IMG/VR virus record: IMGVR_UViG_3300027898_000001
Length of the DNA stretch: 64,000 nt
Reading direction: 5' to 3' (one strand)
Source: a virus
Taxonomy: Duplodnaviria; Caudoviricetes
Shown here: positions 5,610-52,360 of the stretch, piece after piece
Position numbering within the stretch: the stretch's first letter is position 1
Layout of the letters: every line of letters starts with the position of its first letter
Made by a program: the position numbers and the translations under genes
The notes under the pieces: model-generated
What the model was told of the DNA's origin: nothing
Seen by the model: the letters and a program-made list of their open reading frames with translations, nothing else
Databases searched by the model: none

Positions 5610-8600
5610 CTATGCTGCCTTTTTCTTAACAGATTTATCCATACCAGACATTTTCAGTTTGCAATTCCATGCCTGCGTCTTAGCCCAGCTAGGCATGTAC
5701 TCATACTGTTCACGCATAATATTGTTGTACACTGCTTTTGCATCCATATCTGGATATAGTTTTTGCTGCTCTTTCAAACAACTCTTTAAAATATCACCAA
5801 GCTGCTCGATACTAAAAGTCCAACCTTCACAATCACGCTCGTTGTTACCTATCTCGAAGTCAATCTCAAGAGGTACAATAAAGTCCATACCATGTCGTTC
5901 TTGTGATACTTTGGCGACTTCATCAGTAAGACCGCGTTCAATCATATCTAACGCTAACCAAACGTCTTCATACGCGCAACTAAAGCTAATGGAATCGTGT
6001 ACAGAGTTTGCTTGGTAGAAGTCTGGATAATGACCAGTTTTCTCAAAGTGCTCAAACTTCAAGCGTTCAACACTTCGTGCACCATTAATCAAGAAGTCTG
6101 AACCTATACCTTGAATAGGACTATTAACGCTCTGGCGTTCATTACGTGCAATCACGCTATCCGCATTTTTGGTAGCATTCTTTGGTATCAAATGACCCCA
6201 AGTATGGCGTCTACGACCAATAGGACTTTCAACATACAAATTGTCACGAGCAAACTGTTTAATAGCATCAAACCACTTAACACCAACAGGATGCTTCTTC
6301 TTAAACTGTGCTACCAATTTCTCGATAGCTTCAACAGTCTGCCCAGTTGATTTAGATAGACCGTTCATACCTTGTTGATAGATCAATCCAAAGATTACAG
6401 CCTTAACGGCGTCACGAATTTTCTTATCAACTTTCTCAATAGGAATACCGAAGAAGTATGCTGCATTTATTTTGTGTACGTCACCTTCTAACTTAACACG
6501 CTTCAATAATTCTGGATCAGGGTGTAACTTATATTGCTCACGTAACGCCCGACCATTTGCAAACAAATCGGCTACTGTCTTATCGCCAGTAAACAAGGAC
6601 CAGCAGTTGTGTACTAACACCGGTGTATCTTCGGGTTTATCGCAAACAAACAGATTGTGGTTATCAGCAATGCCTATGTCACAAACAAGTTCAGGCCGCG
6701 GGACCTTTCTAATAGATGTAACTTTAACAGCGGAATACTGCACACGCAAGGCATCACCTTCTACAATTTCATCCGCTCTTATGTAATCATTACGGGTAAC
6801 AGACCATATTTGATGATTACCTGTAACAGTTATAGTGCCACCATAATATCCAATCTCATACATATCTTCTTCGGGCGGATGAACAGACTGTGTGCCGATT
6901 TCTTTGAGTTCAACTTCACAAGTTTCATGGTTGAAAGAATGAACTAAAGGCTTATCGTGCATTTCTATAATGTCACGCAGCTTGACCATACCAATTTCAG
7001 TAGACACATAACTATCAAGGCTTAGGCAACGCACTTCGTGGGCAGAGTAGTCCACTTTTATTAGTATTCTACCCTTCTCTGTGATAAACAAGCGCTTAAT
7101 ATGTTTACCTAACTCAGGGCGCGATGGAATTTGGTGCAGACTAGGTTTCTGCGCACTTGTACGACCTGTAACAACGTCCAAGAAGCCAAAGTGTGGACGA
7201 ATACGCTTATCAAAACGCATATCATCATCAGAACCCCACTGCTTAATGAAGGCTTTAACATACGAAGTATACAACTTCTTAGCCTTACCAAGTGCTTGGA
7301 ATAACTTAACTTCTTCAACGTCTTCATATTTTTTCTGGAATGTTTTATCTACTTTAAACTTAGCTTTACCTTTAGAATTCTCTTTACCTTTGCCGGTAGG
7401 TTTTAATTTCAATACATCAAAGAATAACAACTGTTGGTGGTCTTGTTTAGCAATGTCGAAAACTTTAACATCTGAACGTCCAAACAAACCAATTGTAGGC
7501 ATACCGCTTTTCTTTAACAGCTTAGCATTAGCTTTCTGCACACCTTTTGTTTCATAAAACTTCTTCTTAATATTGTCCATTTCTTGGCGTATAGGACTAT
7601 CGCGTGTCTGTAGATAAAACAAATATTCAATATCTGTAGGGCAACCATTAAATTCCCATGTGGAGAACATGTGAATCATATCACTGATCTGCTTTCTAAC
7701 AATGTCTTTGTACTTCTTATAACCTTCGTCTTTGGCACGTTGTAACTGAAGGCGCATAATATGAAGAGGTATGATAACATCTAATGAGCAGTATTCTAAC
7801 AGTGCCTCATCCAAATCTACTTGTGCGATTGTTTTACGTTTGTCTTTACCAAATTCAGCATCATAGTAAGCTGTGCAGCCATATTGCATAGAAAGATTTA
7901 ACAAGCTGTAATAATAAGCACCAGTGACACCTGACAGATTTTTTAAATTTTCGTCTAAAGCGAATTCGCCTGCGAAAATATCCCATATATCTGTCTTAAA
8001 GAATCGAATGTCAAGATTATTACGCAACACAGTTAGGTCAAAGGTACCATTAGCAAAAATATGCACATCATTCTTGTTTTTACGCTCAAAGTAGTCGCGT
8101 AGCACCTTCTTTATATACTGCAATTCTTCCGAGGTAAAGGGGCTATCCTTGTGTAGGAATGGCAAAACATACGCGGTTTTGGTGGTGGTTGCAAACTGCA
8201 CAGTAAGCATACGATTAACGCGCCGATTGAGATTTTCAGTCTCCGTATCAATACTCAGACGGGGTTCATCTATAATTGCCTCAATCATCTTTTTAAATTT
8301 TTTGATACTATCGACAAGCACCGTAGTGTATTCTAACTTAGGAATTTTATAGCGCATTTCACCATTAAGTGCCGTACCTATATTACGAGCAACATAACCA
8401 GCCAACGCCATTTCATTACCTAAGCCTTGGTCGTTGATAAGTGTATTAAGACTGAGAGTAGGTACATGATTGCACTTATGGGATTTATCACCACGCTTCA
8501 CAATAATAGGAGTAGATACACCATATAAGTGTTGCATCTTACCGCCATACTGTTCTATTCGGGCACCATTCAATGCACGATAACCATCAGGACCAAACGT

Positions 8601-11386: not shown

Positions 11387-14300
11387 CTACTTCTTGGTAG
11401 CAGTAGGTTGTTTAGTGGATTTAGGTGCACGGAACTTGATAGCAGTAATCTCAGCCAAAGTATCTTCACGGTTTTCAATCGTGAATCCAGCAGCTTCTAA
11501 TTCTTTTATCTTATCCCGCATTGCAGTTTTATCGTGTGCAAAATAAAGCTCATGTCCATCAGATAATGTCCACTTTGTTGCTGCGCCTGGAATTGATTTA
11601 CCTATATGCTTTTTAATTACTGGGCATGTAGCTAAATCAACAGCAATTTGCAACTCATCGGGCAGTATAATCGGATATGGACGAATCTCATTACGCACGG
11701 TCACTTTTTGTTTACGTACAGAGAAGAAGTGTGGTAAAGAAGACTGTGGTGCTAATTCCAAACGGTAGATTTCTTTACCGCCGGTTTCAAACGCCTCTTG
11801 AATCAACTCTAACCGTTTAGCACTTACATCCGAATACTTAAAATTAGCATCAATGTAGTCTAGTATCTTCTCATACTGGGCGTACTTGGTTGCACGAACA
11901 TAAACGTATGGACCAGTGTGTTTAAATCCAAACTTTGTTAATGCTGGAGCATCTTCATCATCAGATAACACTTCCAGTGTCAGGAAGCCTTGGAAATATG
12001 CAGGATGAATGCTAATAGACATTGCTGAAGTATCAGGTACTGTCTTAGGAAGTTTAGGCATACGCTTAACACCATCATTAATCGGTTTACCTGCTTCTAT
12101 ATTCTTCTTGCGCTTTTGTCCATCTTCATAGGCAGAGTGGCGTTCATCTAAGTCTTTGCGCTCCTTACGGCGACGCTTAGCTTCTTCGATCAACTCTTTC
12201 TCTTCCAATGCTTCTTTTGCATTACGTTCTTTTTCAGCTTCACGATCTAACTTACGTTGCTGTGCTTCTGTAACTGCTAGACTATCTACTTGGAATTGCT
12301 TAGCAGTTTTAGCATTTAATGTTTGAGGTGAAAATAACAAACCAGGATCATTAATACTAATGACGTTACCATCAACAAGTTTTATAGTAACACTTGAAAC
12401 TGGATTACGATCATCTAACTGCCTATTACCAAAGGCATCTAAATCTAATTCTGTTACGACTTTACCTTTAGCGTCTTTAATAGGCTGACCTTCATCATCT
12501 AACTTGGCTTTATAGCGATAACGGTAATTCAACTTAGCTATGCGACCTTTACCTAAATCAGATAGTATTGGCGAACCAATCAACGTAGTAGGATCTTTAA
12601 TAATATCAGCATGACGCAATAATTGACGCAATGACAATAAACCTAAACCTTCTGAATCATCAGGTTTTTGGTTACTAACGAATGGTGTGTTCACCTTAGC
12701 ACTGCCAGCAACTGCAGGTGTTACAGGTATATCACGCATTCTAGGTTCCATCGTATCACGCATTTCCTTAAACTCTTTGTGCATCACACCATTTAATGCA
12801 CCATAAGCATTAACGTAAGTGCTATACTGTTCTAACGTACTGCGACTGCGCAATATCTCCAAACTCATTGGAACTTCATCCAACTGGTAATGATCTAAAG
12901 CATCTTTATACAGAGGATTCTCAGCTTCATCGAAACGCGCTTTGTTGAATACCTTAGCAATCAAACGCGCTTGTTTCTGAATATGCAAAGTACCATCACA
13001 CAGTATCCAATCTAAGAAAATAACCTCGCGATACAAACTACCCGCTTTACCGCTTTCAACCATTGCTTTCGCAGCAGCTGGATCAGGGCGGAATATACGA
13101 GAAGCGGATTGGTCAAGATCACCTGGGTTCCAAGGGCTTTCTACACGAATAATACGACTTGCCATTTGCAAGTTGTGACCTTCTGAAATACCCATCTCAT
13201 TCGCAATAAGAATTTGGACTTTAGGGTCAGCTTTAAACGCATCTAAGTTGGCCCACTTATCGTCTTCTTGTCCCGTGAACTTTACCGCAATCTTTTGCAG
13301 ATCAGGTGACAAGGCATCATATATACCACCAACACTATTAGTGTAGCGACAAAATATAATAATCTTACCTTGTGGCTCTTCTCTCCAATAATCTGGATTG
13401 TTTTGTGGTTCAATACCTACAGTGCTTTCAGGCAAATTAACTTTAGCAACACCTTTATCCACTTTCTTAGCCAAGAATTGGATACCTTTATGTTGTACTA
13501 AAGCATCCTCTTTGTAGTTTGTATCTCGTGACCAATCAGGCACATTAAAGTGTTTATTAATATGCCGCGCAACAAAACTAGCTACAGAACTGTTATAGTG
13601 CTTGATACCAGCAAGTCCGAAGATGGATGGTGCTAAGGGGTCTGCCATTGGATTTGTAATCAAACGCTCTAAGCGGGCGATGAACGGTTTTAAATCGGCA
13701 GAGCTTAATCCAGATAGGTCCTCATCTTCCGTATCAAGATCACCGGTATCATCTCCATTCTCACCATCAGTCTCACCATCATTTTCGTCTTCGTCATCTT
13801 CGTCAGCATCTTCTTTACGTTTCTTAGCTGACTTGACTAGCGCTTCCAACTTTTCAATACTGTCATACAACACAGTATCGTATAATTGTCGGTGTAATTC
13901 ACCCAACTTAACTTCTTCTTCAGTAACACCATTACCTGGACGCATATCTGGGACAAGTGGAATTGGATAGAAGTTTTCTATAGGGCGAGGCAACATAAAT
14001 GCCCAGTTCTTTTTCTTCATCGTAATAACACTTGCGTAACGAGACAGCTTAGCACGAGCGCGTGATGGTGTGTCAACTTTCCAAAGAGGAATAGCTTCAC
14101 CGTTAACAACTACTTCATTCTCTTTCGCAGACAAAACATCATCTTCGCGGAAGATATGACCGTTATACAGACTAGCTTGACCGATAATGTCATTAATACG
14201 TCCGTGAATCAACGTACCTGTGGCTAATCGGAAATACTTGATACCACTCCAAGTAGTAAGTTGCTTAACTGCACGGTGACGTTGTGAAGACTTGTTAGCC

Positions 14301-43233: not shown

Positions 43234-43242
43234 TATTTACAG
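43234..43242 (-). promoter_or_regulatory. CTGTAAATA motif (leftward) of a divergent pair
   Basis: + strand tatttacag, 19 nt upstream of the exonuclease ATG. Confidence 0.65.
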
Positions 43243-43272
43243 TATCTTGATTCAAATTATAGGAAATTGTAA

Positions 43273-43281
43273 CTGTAAATA
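43273..43281 (+). promoter_or_regulatory. CTGTAAATA motif (rightward) of a divergent pair
   Basis: 20 nt upstream of the primase ATG 43302. Confidence 0.65.
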
Positions 43282-45084: not shown

Positions 45085-45102
45085 AATGTCCTCACGTAGA
45101 CG

Positions 45103-45135
45103 AAAAAAAGGCCGAAGGATATTATCCCTCAGCCT
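45103..45135 (-). terminator. Intrinsic terminator
   Basis: Minus strand AGGCUGAGGGAU-AAU-AUCCUUCGGCCU followed by U6. Confidence 0.85.
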
Positions 45136-45164
45136 AAGTTAATACTCACTTTCACTCTGTTAAA

Positions 45165-45773
45165 TTAGCGAGATGCTATAGCCGTTGCTCCCCACTCTTT
45201 AACATTAGCCGATACAGAGTTGGCAATCAAATACTGGATGTCTGCAACGCTCAACGTATGCTCTTTGCTATCTAATTCGTTGATCAGGTCTTCTTCTTGT
45301 TCATCAGAAGACAAACGTAATACCATGTTAGTAATGAATGGATTTATATCATCAGCACCTTTTGGAGGTTCAGCATTGATCTGTTGGTCAACTGGTGCAT
45401 TGAAATCTGCAATATCTGTTTGCTTACTGTTGATATCCAACAATTTGTTCAATTCTGTTTGTGCTCTTGAATTACCTGCAATCAACGCAGCAGCTTCGGC
45501 ACTGTCAATGATTTCCAAGAAGCCCTTTGCTACAACGCGACGGAAGTCTGGATTGCTAAGAACATCTTTCTTTGGACAGAACATACTAGCATCGAATGGA
45601 ATCCAAGTGACTGGAACTTGAAGACTAACTTTGCTGTTGTTTGAAGTAATAACCATATTAATGTTGCCAGATGGATTACTTTTATTCAACAAATACAATT
45701 CTGTGTCATCATTACGCAAACTAGTTTCTGCTTGCGCGATAGTAAGTTTTTTAAGTGATACTTTTGTGCTCAT
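45165..45773 (-). CDS. Hypothetical protein
   Basis: 202 aa, SD AGGAG, followed by a terminator. Confidence 0.65.
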   Translation of the reverse strand: MSTKVSLKKLTIAQAETSLRNDDTELYLLNKSNPSGNINMVITSNNSKVSLQVPVTWIPFDASMFCPKKDVLSNPDFRRVVAKGFLEIIDSAEAAALIAGNSRAQTELNKLLDINSKQTDIADFNAPVDQQINAEPPKGADDINPFITNMVLRLSSDEQEEDLINELDSKEHTLSVADIQYLIANSVSANVKEWGATAIASR

Positions 45774-45787
45774 GTGAAAGTCTCCTA

Positions 45788-46333
45788 TTAGACTATTGTT
45801 TGAAATAATGTATCTCCCGAAGCCATGACACGAACATCTTTTGAAAACGCATCATATTCCCGTTGAGAAAGGTTTAACACTGATCTAAATGAAAATTGTG
45901 GTACAATGGTTGTGCAATACTTTTCATCTACGAGTTTTAATAGCATCCAAGGCATGAAATTAAAATCTTGTACATTTAAAGGTTTATCTGCTATAACACT
46001 ATCAACTAATTGCGATCTACCTGCTTGGTAAATAAACTGCTCAGGTTTCTCTGTGTTTAAAATGTGTGCTACTACATGGTGAAACATAATCCACGAGTTC
46101 ATTCTATCAGTAGCTTTAGAACGGATACGCTTAACGTCTTTAACTGTTATTTCTTTATCTGGGAATTTATACAACAACAATTCAGAATCAGATATTGGTG
46201 TATCACCTGCAGCAGCTTTAACGTCTAAGGCAAGACAACGATTAGCCGTTGTTGGAGTATAGTTCTTACACGAGGTTATTTTGCAACGTGAAGTAAAACA
46301 ATATGAGGCTACTAGAGGACATTGTTTTTTCAT
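45788..46333 (-). CDS. Hypothetical protein with Cys-rich N-terminus
   Basis: 181-aa ORF; C..C..C..C..C in the first 30 residues. Confidence 0.6.
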   Translation of the reverse strand: MKKQCPLVASYCFTSRCKITSCKNYTPTTANRCLALDVKAAAGDTPISDSELLLYKFPDKEITVKDVKRIRSKATDRMNSWIMFHHVVAHILNTEKPEQFIYQAGRSQLVDSVIADKPLNVQDFNFMPWMLLKLVDEKYCTTIVPQFSFRSVLNLSQREYDAFSKDVRVMASGDTLFQTIV

Positions 46334-46334
46334 A

Positions 46335-46553
46335 TTAATCCAACACCGCCACAGACTGTATAGGTCTCACAGGTAATGATGCACGGACCAAACAATCTTT
46401 AGCTTCCAACAGTTTGCGCAAACCCGCTGACTTTTCTGGACCATCAGGCAACATGTCATCATACTGATGTGCAATATCACAAATTGGTTTACTCACTGAC
46501 TGTAATGCTGGAGGTAAATGTGCGTATTCAAAATATTGTAGAATTGGATTCAT
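46335..46553 (-). CDS. Small helical phage protein (72 aa; start ATG 46553)
   Basis: YFEYAHLP..EKSAGLRKLLEAKDCLVRA helical hairpin; SD AGGT. Confidence 0.7.
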   Translation of the reverse strand: MNPILQYFEYAHLPPALQSVSKPICDIAHQYDDMLPDGPEKSAGLRKLLEAKDCLVRASLPVRPIQSVAVLD

Positions 46554-46573
46554 ATAAATACCTATGCAATATA

Positions 46574-46712
46574 AACCATTATAATGTAGCAGTCTGCCTA
46601 TCATATCTTCGGTGCCTTGTACTTTGGCACATGCGCCCGATACTCAAGTTTTCCGTTTTATTGGCCGCGTATCCAATAAGTTACAGTTACAAACTGCTAG
46701 ACTATAATGGCT
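46574..46712 (-). ncRNA. Candidate ~140-nt structured RNA or 5' leader
   Basis: Closing stems AGCCAUUAUA/UAUAAUGGUU and UAGCAGUUU/AGACUGCUA enclosing hairpins UUAUUGG/CCAAUAA and GUGCC/GGCAC; starts ~15 nt after CTGTAAATA. Confidence 0.65.
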
Positions 46713-46727
46713 CTGTGGCACATAAGC

Positions 46728-46736
46728 TATTTACAG
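46728..46736 (-). promoter_or_regulatory. CTGTAAATA motif overlapping the ruvC stop
   Basis: + strand tatttacag directly upstream of the structured element. Confidence 0.6.
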
Positions 46737-47306
46737 TTTAGCGGACTTGTCCAAGTGACGTAGGAACGATATTATCCTTGCTTCACCTTCTAGGTTTGCG
46801 AATGGTATAAGATCAAATTGTTTAGCTACATGGTACTGCGCCATTAGCGTACAATCTAGTTCATGTACTTGGTGACGTATTTTAGGAGATTTTGGTTTCG
46901 ACAATACTTTTAGCATATCGTAAGTATCATTTAAAGAACAATCCTTATTAACGCGGTTAAAAGCATTCTTCCAAGTACCTGCAGTGTAAAGTACTATATT
47001 AGGATAAATATCATGTAACTTACCAATCATCATATTGATTGATTCTATGGAAAGTCCCTTTAATCCCCTACTTTGAAAACGCTCCGCGCACACTAAATCA
47101 AACGGTCCATATAAATGCTCAAGATGGTATATGTTTGATACAAACGCTCTACCCTCAGTCTTGATAGACATAGGGTTCTTAATAGGGCGCTCAAGCATTT
47201 GCGTACCAAGAACTTTTACTTTTAATTCACCGTCTTTAACTATCATATCAGATATTGAAACACCGTAATTAGCAGTACCTGGATCCATTGATAATATGCG
47301 CATCAC
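46731..47306 (-). CDS. ruvC: RuvC-like Holliday junction resolvase
   Basis: ILSMDPGTANYG, CAERF, HELDC acidic RNase H-fold pattern. Confidence 0.82.
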   Translation of the reverse strand: MMRILSMDPGTANYGVSISDMIVKDGELKVKVLGTQMLERPIKNPMSIKTEGRAFVSNIYHLEHLYGPFDLVCAERFQSRGLKGLSIESINMMIGKLHDIYPNIVLYTAGTWKNAFNRVNKDCSLNDTYDMLKVLSKPKSPKIRHQVHELDCTLMAQYHVAKQFDLIPFANLEGEARIISFLRHLDKSAKL

Positions 47307-47392
47307 ATCTACCTTATAAGAGTTTCGAGAAAATTAGCATATCGTGGTTCGATAATTTTAATTATATTTCCAATGCTAAAGGTAGAAGTAGA

Positions 47393-48499
47393 ATGGCTAT
47401 ATATAGAGGACCACAAGATACAAACAGACGCGCCAAGAACTACACACACAAACAAGCTCAAGCACGTTTGGAAGAGACTATACCTACATTTAACGAGCAA
47501 GTAATCAACTCACTTGGTGTGGATAGTGTTTTCATAGATTACTTCCATGTACATGATAGAGTAGGTGAAGTGTGCAGTTGTAGAAAAACAAAGGTAGAGG
47601 ACACATTCGATCACGTGGAAGATGGTGTGAATACAGTAGTACCTACACGTAATGATGTTAAGTCGTCCATAATACTGCAAGATGATGATATATTCGGAGA
47701 TAGTCGGGCAGAACGTATCTACGAAGATCAGGGGATAGATGTAAGTGGAGACTTAGATTATGATCCTAGTATTCCAGACGTGTTGACTGCACAACTAGAT
47801 AAAGATGGTAATGTTGTATATCAAGATAGTGTGACAGAAGGTAATGTAGATTGTCCTATATGTTATCGCACAGGCATACTACCCGGCTACACAAGATTGA
47901 ATACAGTGCGCCATTTGTTGACAAGTTTGAACTATGTTAAACTTGATGGTTACAATATAGATAGGGCATTGACACCACACGAGTTGTGGAACGTAAGTAA
48001 AACAGGTAATGCGTATTATGAGATATTAGTGCCAAAATACTTCACAGTAGCTAATTACAGTGTTCGTTATGGTAAGTACATTCTAAAGGCCGAAAGTATC
48101 TATCTGAACGGTGTGCCTCTGTCAGATAAGTTATTACGCAGATACGCAGGCACAAAGATAATAGTGTCTACAAAGGCCGAAAAATTTACACACATTGTTA
48201 TAGAGTTTGAATTAGTGCAAGAAAAACTACGTGGTAACCTGAGCGCTGAATCGAAAGCCTTAGATTACAATTTACGTGATATGACAGCGGATTTCACAGT
48301 AATCTTACCACCAAGTTTACATGAAGTAAGAGTGAATGATGTTATTGTAATACGGGATAGAAGGTTAGTATTAAAGGTGAAAGACATGGAACGTAAAGTG
48401 ACGGCAGCAAAAAAGCAATTAGAATGGTCAGTTCAAACGAGGGTGGTTCAACCACAGGAACCAATCAAAAACATTTACAAATCATTTAAAATAGGTTAA
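47393..48499 (+). CDS. Hypothetical protein, possible head-closure/neck protein (start ATG 47393)
   Basis: CSC..CPICYRTG zinc motif and beta-rich C-terminus; structural role inferred. Confidence 0.45.
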   Translation: MAIYRGPQDTNRRAKNYTHKQAQARLEETIPTFNEQVINSLGVDSVFIDYFHVHDRVGEVCSCRKTKVEDTFDHVEDGVNTVVPTRNDVKSSIILQDDDIFGDSRAERIYEDQGIDVSGDLDYDPSIPDVLTAQLDKDGNVVYQDSVTEGNVDCPICYRTGILPGYTRLNTVRHLLTSLNYVKLDGYNIDRALTPHELWNVSKTGNAYYEILVPKYFTVANYSVRYGKYILKAESIYLNGVPLSDKLLRRYAGTKIIVSTKAEKFTHIVIEFELVQEKLRGNLSAESKALDYNLRDMTADFTVILPPSLHEVRVNDVIVIRDRRLVLKVKDMERKVTAAKKQLEWSVQTRVVQPQEPIKNIYKSFKIG

Positions 48500-49939: not shown

Positions 49940-50640
49940 TATTGCGCGAGAGCGAATAGCCTCGAAACGAATTCCCCAGCCAGAATGAGTGATAGAGATT
50001 GACCGAATGAGAACGAAGCGAAAGTGAGGGTATTTATACCCGAACAGAATTAGGCGCATTTGCGAAAAACTTGAATAGACTAGCCAGATTAATAAGCCTA
50101 ATCGGACGAGCGGAGTGAAGTCCTAATAGCGAAGCGTCCTGTCCGATGCTGCGGAGCAGCGAGTACACCTTAGCGCAGCGAAAGGTGATTAAAGATACTC
50201 TAAAAGATATTTCCCTGGCTCCAAGAATACATCATCCTAATTGGTAGATGATGTTGATTAGGTCTTTGGTAAATTGGGCAAAGCCTGCTTTTCGGAAAGC
50301 CATTGTTCCCGTTTCTAATTAGCCTATCTTTATAACGATTTAATTAGGATTAATTCTTTGCCTTTTTGCCTTTAAAGTTAGGATTAATTCTTGTATGAGT
50401 TAATCGCCTACGGCTCATAACTCCACTCTGCTGCGCAGAGGTCTTTATCGTTACTTCGTAACTCTTATTCTTCGCTCCGCTCATCATCCGCTACACTACG
50501 TTCCGCTCCTATTTTTAACTAATCTGTTTTAATTCCTTTTTCTATGCGCTAACGCGCTTGATAATATTTTACGCCGCGCCGGTTCGAGGCTGCTTTCGTG
50601 CGCGTTTCGCGCTTTTCTGAGTAATTTTATATACTTTTTC
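49940..50640. other. Candidate replication origin / strand-switch control region
   Basis: Non-coding; purine-rich left arm and pyrimidine-rich right arm; GNA-loop mini-hairpins on opposite strands; coding strand flips here. Confidence 0.6.
50344..50392 (+). repeat. 15-bp direct repeat TTAGGATTAATTCTT x2
   Basis: Copies at 50344-50358 and 50378-50392. Confidence 0.85.
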
Positions 50641-51829: not shown

Positions 51830-51926
51830 GAAGTTGAGACTGAATGGTTACCGAACGGGGATGAAGCCTAGCGGGTCGACAGTTAAACATCCTGTTATGT
51901 ACTGGAGGTTACGCAGTCTCAGCTTC
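51830..51926 (+). ncRNA. Candidate ~97-nt structured RNA
   Basis: 13-bp closing stem GAAGUUGAGACUG/CAGUCUCAGCUUC; GC-richer than flanks; preceded by GTGTAAACA. Confidence 0.55.
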
Positions 51927-52283: not shown

Positions 52284-52360
52284 GGGCCTATAGCTCAGTT
52301 GGTCAGAGCGTTCGGCTCATAACCGAAATGTCCGCAGTTCAAGTCTGCGTGGGCCCACCA
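52284..52360 (+). tRNA. tRNA with CAT anticodon, most likely Ile2 (lysidine type)
   Basis: Acceptor GGGCCTA/TGGGCCC, anticodon arm TTCGG-CTCATAA-CCGAA, T-loop TTCAAGT, encoded CCA; C4:G69, C5:G68, A73. Confidence 0.93.

Follow-up and report, generated by a model that had tools for sequence, protein, structure and literature searches.

An orphan RNA fold with statistical support in an operon leader of a freshwater jumbo phage

In the P4 CI and P1 C4 antisense RNAs (the C4 families of Rfam), which are excised from a phage leader, a stalk formed by both ends of the molecule closes two internal hairpins, and the msr-msd RNA of retrons is also built from a stalk of this kind closing two internal hairpins. 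The RNase III sites of phage T7 (R1.1 and the promoter-proximal late ones), like the processing stalks of rRNA, are helices of about two turns that lie between a promoter or an upstream gene and the next ribosome binding site (RBS). RNase III recognizes its sites primarily by a helix of two turns, one set of proximal and distal boxes is enough to specify a site, and an internal loop can restrict the enzyme to one strand, leaving a protective hairpin (PMC1540722). The element described here shares with the T7 sites the position of its two-turn helix, an internal loop at the helix base and a partial match to the boxes, but the T7 helices are capped by a short loop, whereas the stalk of the element holds a folded cargo of 93 nt, its box match is incomplete and its cleavage is only predicted. 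It is larger than the P4 CI and P1 C4 RNAs and lacks an Rfam match, and no antisense target for it was found in its virus record (G000); likeness to a retron finds no reverse transcriptase in this incomplete record and none adjacent to the element. Neither an Rfam match nor a TROVE protein, in G000 (56% complete) or in four relatives, links it to the Y RNA/Ro60 system.

The element lies in a stretch of 64,000 nucleotides (the window) that belongs to a freshwater jumbo phage, represented by the 147-kb partial virus record G000 (56% complete according to CheckV) and with an estimated genome of ~260 kb. PaBG, Y3 and Afa-NA1 are kin of this phage by their RuvC-like resolvases (36-40% identity). 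On the minus strand, a gap of 177 bp houses the RNA, between the gene of this Holliday junction resolvase (47306-46731; phrog_18317, E 1.5e-40, with orthologues in PaBG and Y3) and a gene coding for a 72-aa protein (46553-46335). Two core genes follow on the same strand (45165-46333), which match phrog_19006 and phrog_17686 and are conserved in related loci, and the operon ends at a hairpin that resembles an intrinsic terminator (45109-45135, minus strand), the sole terminator-like site in 45100-47400. The frame of the resolvase and small genes runs through 46554-46730 (minus strand) with a single stop (TGA), immediately 5' of the second hairpin of the RNA, and an 8-codon ORF starts at ATG 46723 (minus strand), near the expected transcription start; the element-spanning open frame and the short ORF have a ~10% chance by rough estimate, and are probably incidental.

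From its placement, we infer that the motif TGTAAATA at 46728-46735 (minus strand), which overlaps the stop codon of the resolvase gene (46733-46731), is a single-box phage promoter. In G000, 17 of its 27 copies are located in non-coding space, which makes up 9.5% of the record, mostly 26-62 nt ahead of a start, and in 28 of 30 related loci, some of which are not independent of each other, TGTAAA coincides with the RuvC stop or follows it closely. It is this placement that is significant, and not the number of copies in the window (12 versus 7.0 +/- 2.9 expected), so that the motif behaves like a real promoter, as a preliminary description had proposed. The copy of the element is 175 nt from the AUG, and there is no further TGTAAATA between 46728 and 45100. 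Because no second copy precedes the hairpin at 45135-45109, the two core genes would have to be read through the element, barring an unrecognised promoter, and the RNA therefore belongs to the operon leader, whatever its other role. TATAAATA at 46553-46560 (plus strand) was rejected as an antisense promoter, since this motif is mostly intragenic (3 of its 16 copies are outside ORFs). Elsewhere in the window, a divergent pair of TGTAAATA is located at 43234-43281, between the genes for a primase and a PD-(D/E)XK nuclease.

The RNA, of about 140 bases, is organized around a basal helix of the minus strand (the stalk), in which the 5' arm (46713-46690) pairs with the 3' arm (46596-46573). The helix starts 15 nt after the promoter motif and stops 20 nt short of ATG 46553, where it had been placed, and turns out to be longer than the interrupted ~20 bp previously described: 24 positions form 23 pairs (4 of them G.U), with one mismatch (C46700.C46586), and pair probabilities reach 0.96-1.0 for positions 46711-46690. 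The 93-nt interior closed by the stalk contains two hairpins. Hairpin 1 (46653-46686, minus strand; pair probabilities 0.93-1.0) has a 7-bp stem and an 8-nt loop (46679-46658), to which 4 bp are added by 46686-46683 with 46656-46653; it agrees with the preliminary description and extends it. Hairpin 2 (46603-46643, minus strand) is also present, but it is irregular, with two alternative registers at its apex, and the register first described lies ~2 kcal/mol above the one preferred by ViennaRNA (46631-46627 with 46622-46618, p 0.95-0.98). A TATAAT hexamer without a -35 is found inside the 3' arm of the stalk. Ahead of the stalk, the 5' leader (46714-46727, minus strand) pairs weakly (5-8 bp) in the MFE structures with 46567-46560, which include the AGGU of a Shine-Dalgarno (SD)-like sequence. 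This sequence of the small gene (AGGUA, 46559-46563, minus strand) has a counterpart in L095, a related locus in which a comparable RBS context lies directly 3' of the promoter. Opening the RBS is predicted to cost just ~4 kcal/mol, and no RBS switch is predicted for the element.

The fold in this phage operon leader is real and statistically supported, and a chance origin is unlikely. The minus-strand core reaches -50.6 kcal/mol (z -5.8 and -4.5), a value not equalled in any of 300 shuffles, whereas the plus strand of the core gives -37.0 kcal/mol, 13.6 kcal/mol worse (z -3.2 and -1.3); a 191-nt fold has z -3.7. When both strands of G000 were scanned, the stalk was the top long-range helix (score 19.8, runner-up 18.8), and its score was matched in 1 of 200 shuffled stretches of 28 kb, the size of the non-coding genome. 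The 93-nt interior deprived of the stalk still gives z -2.6 (p=0.011). Of the five positions at which the arms differ as DNA, four become G.U pairs on the transcribed minus strand, although two of these four pairs are terminal and favoured by the helix definition used, so this asymmetry is modest evidence.

The site where the RNA is located carries different genes in related phages. In many relatives, phrog_19006 comes directly after the resolvase gene and the promoter, and in a subgroup of more distant phages the position belongs to a different gene. In L286 the small gene begins 27 nt after the RuvC stop, without the RNA, while L091 and L092, the closest relatives, carry a small Cys/His ORF, followed by the small gene in fused form, and in L095 a 368-aa gene without PHROG match (L095:1032-2138) occupies the same promoter-proximal slot, with the small gene next. 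Comparison with L095 places the boundaries of the insert roughly at 46726 and 46569, an interval filled almost exactly by the fold. Judged by these comparisons, the site is a cargo hotspot and the RNA an insert specific to this phage lineage. In the fused form (L091:8604-9269 and L092:2315-2980), the sponge-like domain is joined to ~150 more residues behind the Cys/His ORF, which codes for 66 aa and has no PHROG match. The RNA was also considered as a relic of this ORF and rejected, as their alignment is at chance level.

The gene downstream of the RNA (46335-46553, minus strand; phrog_1761/5120) codes for a putative signal sponge of the Acb2/Tad1 type. It belongs to a large family (2,388 matches among 2,400 candidates), and its 72-aa product is modelled as a three-helix hairpin (pLDDT 94), small and all-helical as the Acb2/Tad1 sponges (PF24729) are. 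The likeness is one of language-model features only: in ESM Atlas, scores of 0.92-0.94 were obtained to clusters in which 18-51% of the members carry PF24729 (Acb2_Tad1_hairpin). Unlike those sponges, the protein belongs to an uncharacterised family and has no specific match in Pfam, PDB sequence, Foldseek or VIA; its model retrieved generic helical matches only from the last two (best Z 6.8), a result that excludes nothing. The anti-defence assignment suggested earlier for this gene thus agrees with the ESM Atlas features and finds no counterpart in Pfam, PDB sequence or Foldseek. The 17-codon N-terminal extension was rightly suspected to be a gene-calling error, because the family consensus starts at ATG 46553; the extensions present in some homologues are unlike it.

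The element is an orphan. Rfam, searched at the gathering threshold and at E<=10, returned nothing but two chance miRNA matches (E 2.5), in line with the lack of a recognizable riboswitch or ribozyme consensus noted from the start. When the element was compared by blastn with phages, plasmids, E. coli and 50 records of the sponge family, no homologue was detected; there is no second copy in G000, and the abstracts retrieved from the literature contained no description of the RNA or the promoter. Two single-sequence CMs found it neither at ~90 loci of the sponge family, including the same-site L286, nor in the whole of four relatives, ~25 records of phages that were related or had matched a pattern, and 151 genomes from a single bacterial class. 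Its absence from the ~90 loci indicates that the RNA and the small gene are neighbours and not a conserved unit, and led us to reject it as a conserved leader of the sponge family. Exact or gapped patterns for hairpin 1, hairpin 1 plus linker, the inner stalk, a 21-mer and the outer stalk retrieved chance matches or tRNA-array cassettes from IMG/VR, and the inner-stalk pattern retrieved only CTAG-type MITEs and chance matches from GTDB; single-sequence CMs and exact patterns tend to miss homologues that have diverged, especially in families whose stems turn over. Kinship with the late-leader stalk of lambda was rejected, as the 5' arm is no more similar to it than may be expected by chance (p=0.15). 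Within G000, 46666-46686 of the window (minus strand), comprising hairpin 1 and its 5' flank, matches 19 of 21 positions of G000:116820-116840 (plus strand; E 0.025), in the intergenic leader of a gene coding for a 689-aa ATPase; the two may share a motif that resembles a promoter or binds a protein, or the match may be due to chance.

The best reading, which we hold tentatively and at somewhat less than even confidence, is that the leader of this operon of three genes contains a stalk of the RNase III type, which would release an RNA of ~120 nt. In the lineage of this phage, a cassette of ~160 bp has entered between the conserved TGTAAA promoter and the RBS of the first gene of the operon, and its RNA would be transcribed as the 5' leader of the three genes. 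The two-turn stalk would be cut by the RNase III of the host, in the best register between 46703 and 46702 in the 5' arm and between 46582 and 46581 in the 3' arm, or alternatively by a single cut near 46569, in the loop below the stalk, as at T7 R1.1. The enzyme would have to be that of the host because neither G000 nor four relatives have an RNase III gene. Cleavage would free a stem-closed RNA of ~120 nt and give the mRNA a new 5' end 15-28 nt ahead of the AUG, the cargo being a passenger that exploits a strong promoter and not a sensor for the sponge gene.

The stalk, with two full turns and one mismatch, has the length that RNase III demands. In the outer register, pb2, pb3 and pb4 are A-U/U-A and db2 is U.G, with departures from the optimum at pb1 (A-U) and db1 (unpaired), according to box rules that are those of E. 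coli and may not be those of the host; a match this good is ~8% likely in such a helix (a rough hand estimate), making the box fit suggestive only. The second register, with its cut near 46569, resembles T7 R1.1. Predicted access to the RBS is no better after either cut (5.5 and 4.3 kcal/mol, versus ~3.9 kcal/mol uncut), and since cutting is not predicted to free the RBS, cargo release is a likelier purpose than translational activation. Processing with release of a cargo is also favoured by the different cargo that the site takes in relatives, by the stalk-plus-cargo cassettes that occur in the tRNA arrays of other phages and by the recurrence in this phage group of a promoter followed by a stalk-closed small RNA (window 51830-51926; G000:120840-120902; G005 and G006). 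A bolder proposal, that the phage uses the cargo as a decoy or counter-defence RNA of a new kind, cut from or terminated within the sponge transcript at one hotspot where RNA and protein anti-defence cargo are interchangeable, must be regarded as doubtful.

In the tRNA arrays of other phages, stems of 16-18 bp that start on the CCA of a tRNA enclose different folded interiors (L351:7120-7267 and 8029-8125; L396:9153-9300 and 11910-12005; L310; L320), and the tRNA-Glu cassette differs among L310, L320 and L351. These cassettes (also present in L369) resemble the element in their long CCA-starting stem, multi-hairpin interior and overall size of 95-147 nt, and the outer 9 bp of the tRNA-Glu cassettes equal those of the element, but this identity was forced by the search pattern. 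The cassettes follow a tRNA, whereas none precedes the element (the window has a single tRNA, at 52284-52360), and the inner half of the stem is out of register, needing a 3-bp insertion. Against unselected tRNA-array stalks (three distinct ones only), the similarity of the arms is at chance level (p 0.4-0.65), and the CMs do not score the cassettes. Given the pattern-imposed 9 bp, the chance-level similarity to unselected stalks and the lack of a preceding tRNA, the element was not filed with the tRNA-array cassettes.

A three-way-junction RNA of 65-75 nt was observed outside the window, at G000:C1:120840-120902 (plus strand), and in two other phages, at G005:16519-16590 (in L263) and G006:196690-196755 (in L283). 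It lies behind TGTAAAGA, with the phrog_20988 ATPase gene ~2 kb upstream in each of the three phages, and has a conserved core (GACAAGGCYGGCC) and a 13-bp closing stem whose sequence is different in each phage while its pairing remains intact; in G005 and G006 it is followed by a U-run. As this RNA keeps its junction and replaces the sequence of its stalk, stalk-based searches would miss such a family. With its covariation, it is a better-supported lead than the 140-base element. A second promoter-linked candidate in the window (51830-51926, plus strand), with a perfect 13-bp stem and a 71-nt interior, is located just after GTGTAAACA and upstream of tRNA-Met, and has no Rfam match at the gathering threshold. 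Nested long inverted repeats at G005:164916-165190, with three helices scoring 20-23, are possibly the counterpart of a mirrored hairpin region at 49940-50640 of the window.

Among the alternatives to processing by RNase III, the one that survives best, although unlikely, is a discrete trans-acting small RNA of ~150 nt, made from the promoter, ended by partial termination at the U-rich run behind the stalk and serving a protein of the host or the phage as ligand or decoy, possibly in counter-defence. The interior folds independently, 6 of the 8 nt that follow the final G-C pair (46575-46568) are U and U-runs follow the other stalked RNAs of the group in G005 and G006, but the terminator scan did not call the site, and efficient termination there would sever two core genes for which there is no further TGTAAATA promoter. 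The search for a partner found neither TROVE/Ro60 nor a reverse transcriptase in the 56%-complete G000.

A little less probable is a DNA-level element, with the RNA fold as a by-product: the relic of a MITE with its CTAG insertion site at the centre of a small palindrome, a pair of back-to-back sigma-70 promoters or an invertible segment. The MITE version would explain an orphan insertion, the C.C mismatch falls exactly where CTAG faces CTAC, and the inner arms are like the ends of bacterial MITEs that target CTAG (a likeness built into the search); however, the terminal repeat would be of 7 bp only, with CTAG/CTAC flanks and a single copy in the record, and the interior is unrelated to any MITE match. 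A TATAAT in each arm and a plus-strand promoter-like site scoring 10/12 (46680-46708) would suit sigma-70 promoters, yet the minus-strand TATAAT lacks a -35 and sigma-70-like sites are fewer than in shuffles (4 versus 8.2). For an invertible segment, neither a tyrosine nor a serine recombinase was found in G000 (an incomplete record), and the arm differences, which favour G.U pairs on one strand, argue against any DNA-level explanation. A large family of 100-130-bp MITEs with ends CAGTYTGTCGGA and CTAG-like target flanks was observed in L148-L262, from MAGs of Chloroflexota, Planctomycetota and Acidobacteriota.

A cis-acting leader that modulates translation or stability without cleavage is clearly improbable. 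It would work through the pairing of the 5' end with the SD, seen in the MFE structure with 46567-46560, and through nested transcripts from the tandem TGTAAC boxes at the top of the stalk (46691 and 46685), which would lack the 5' arm and fold differently; nested late promoters are known in T4. Non-coding space holds 3 of 12 TGTAAC variants, though, which is no enrichment, and the opening energy hardly varies with the start site (3.8-4.9 kcal/mol). The match of hairpin 1 to the intergenic leader at G000:116820 would fit a cis-acting leader as well, but the 21-mer is barely above background (34 versus 32) and has no viral copies.

Very little room is left for a functionless chance fold within a recently gained spacer. 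Such an origin would account for an orphan, and the element was picked by its stem among many windows, so that p ~0.005 per genome is less extreme over a large scan; against it, the stalk and the interior are significant separately, and the limits of the fold, which is on the transcribed strand, nearly coincide with those of the insert. The most improbable reading of all is control of the sponge gene by a self-cleaving ribozyme or by a riboswitch that responds to a ligand, the latter being the second of two options in the preliminary description: it would fit the 5' leader position, the multi-stem junction with A-rich linkers and, biologically, a link to cyclic nucleotides, but the RNA is missing upstream of ~90 homologues of the gene, L286 included, no RBS switch or alternative fold was seen, the 24-bp stalk is too stable for ligand switching, Rfam yields only the two chance miRNA matches, the hammerhead core misfits by eye and no perfect Watson-Crick pseudoknot of at least 5 bp appears among those listed from the loops.

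As a single orphan element, the RNA is at present valuable as a defined, easily synthesised test substrate. If its processing by RNase III is real, PaBG-like jumbo phages would keep next to a promoter a slot open to protein genes as well as to stalk-closed RNAs that a nuclease of the host sets free, and the T7-type RNase III site, otherwise a mere place of cutting, would also be able to carry small RNAs, away from tRNA arrays. RNA-based counter-defences are few, and the cargo would be one more of them if it binds a defence protein.
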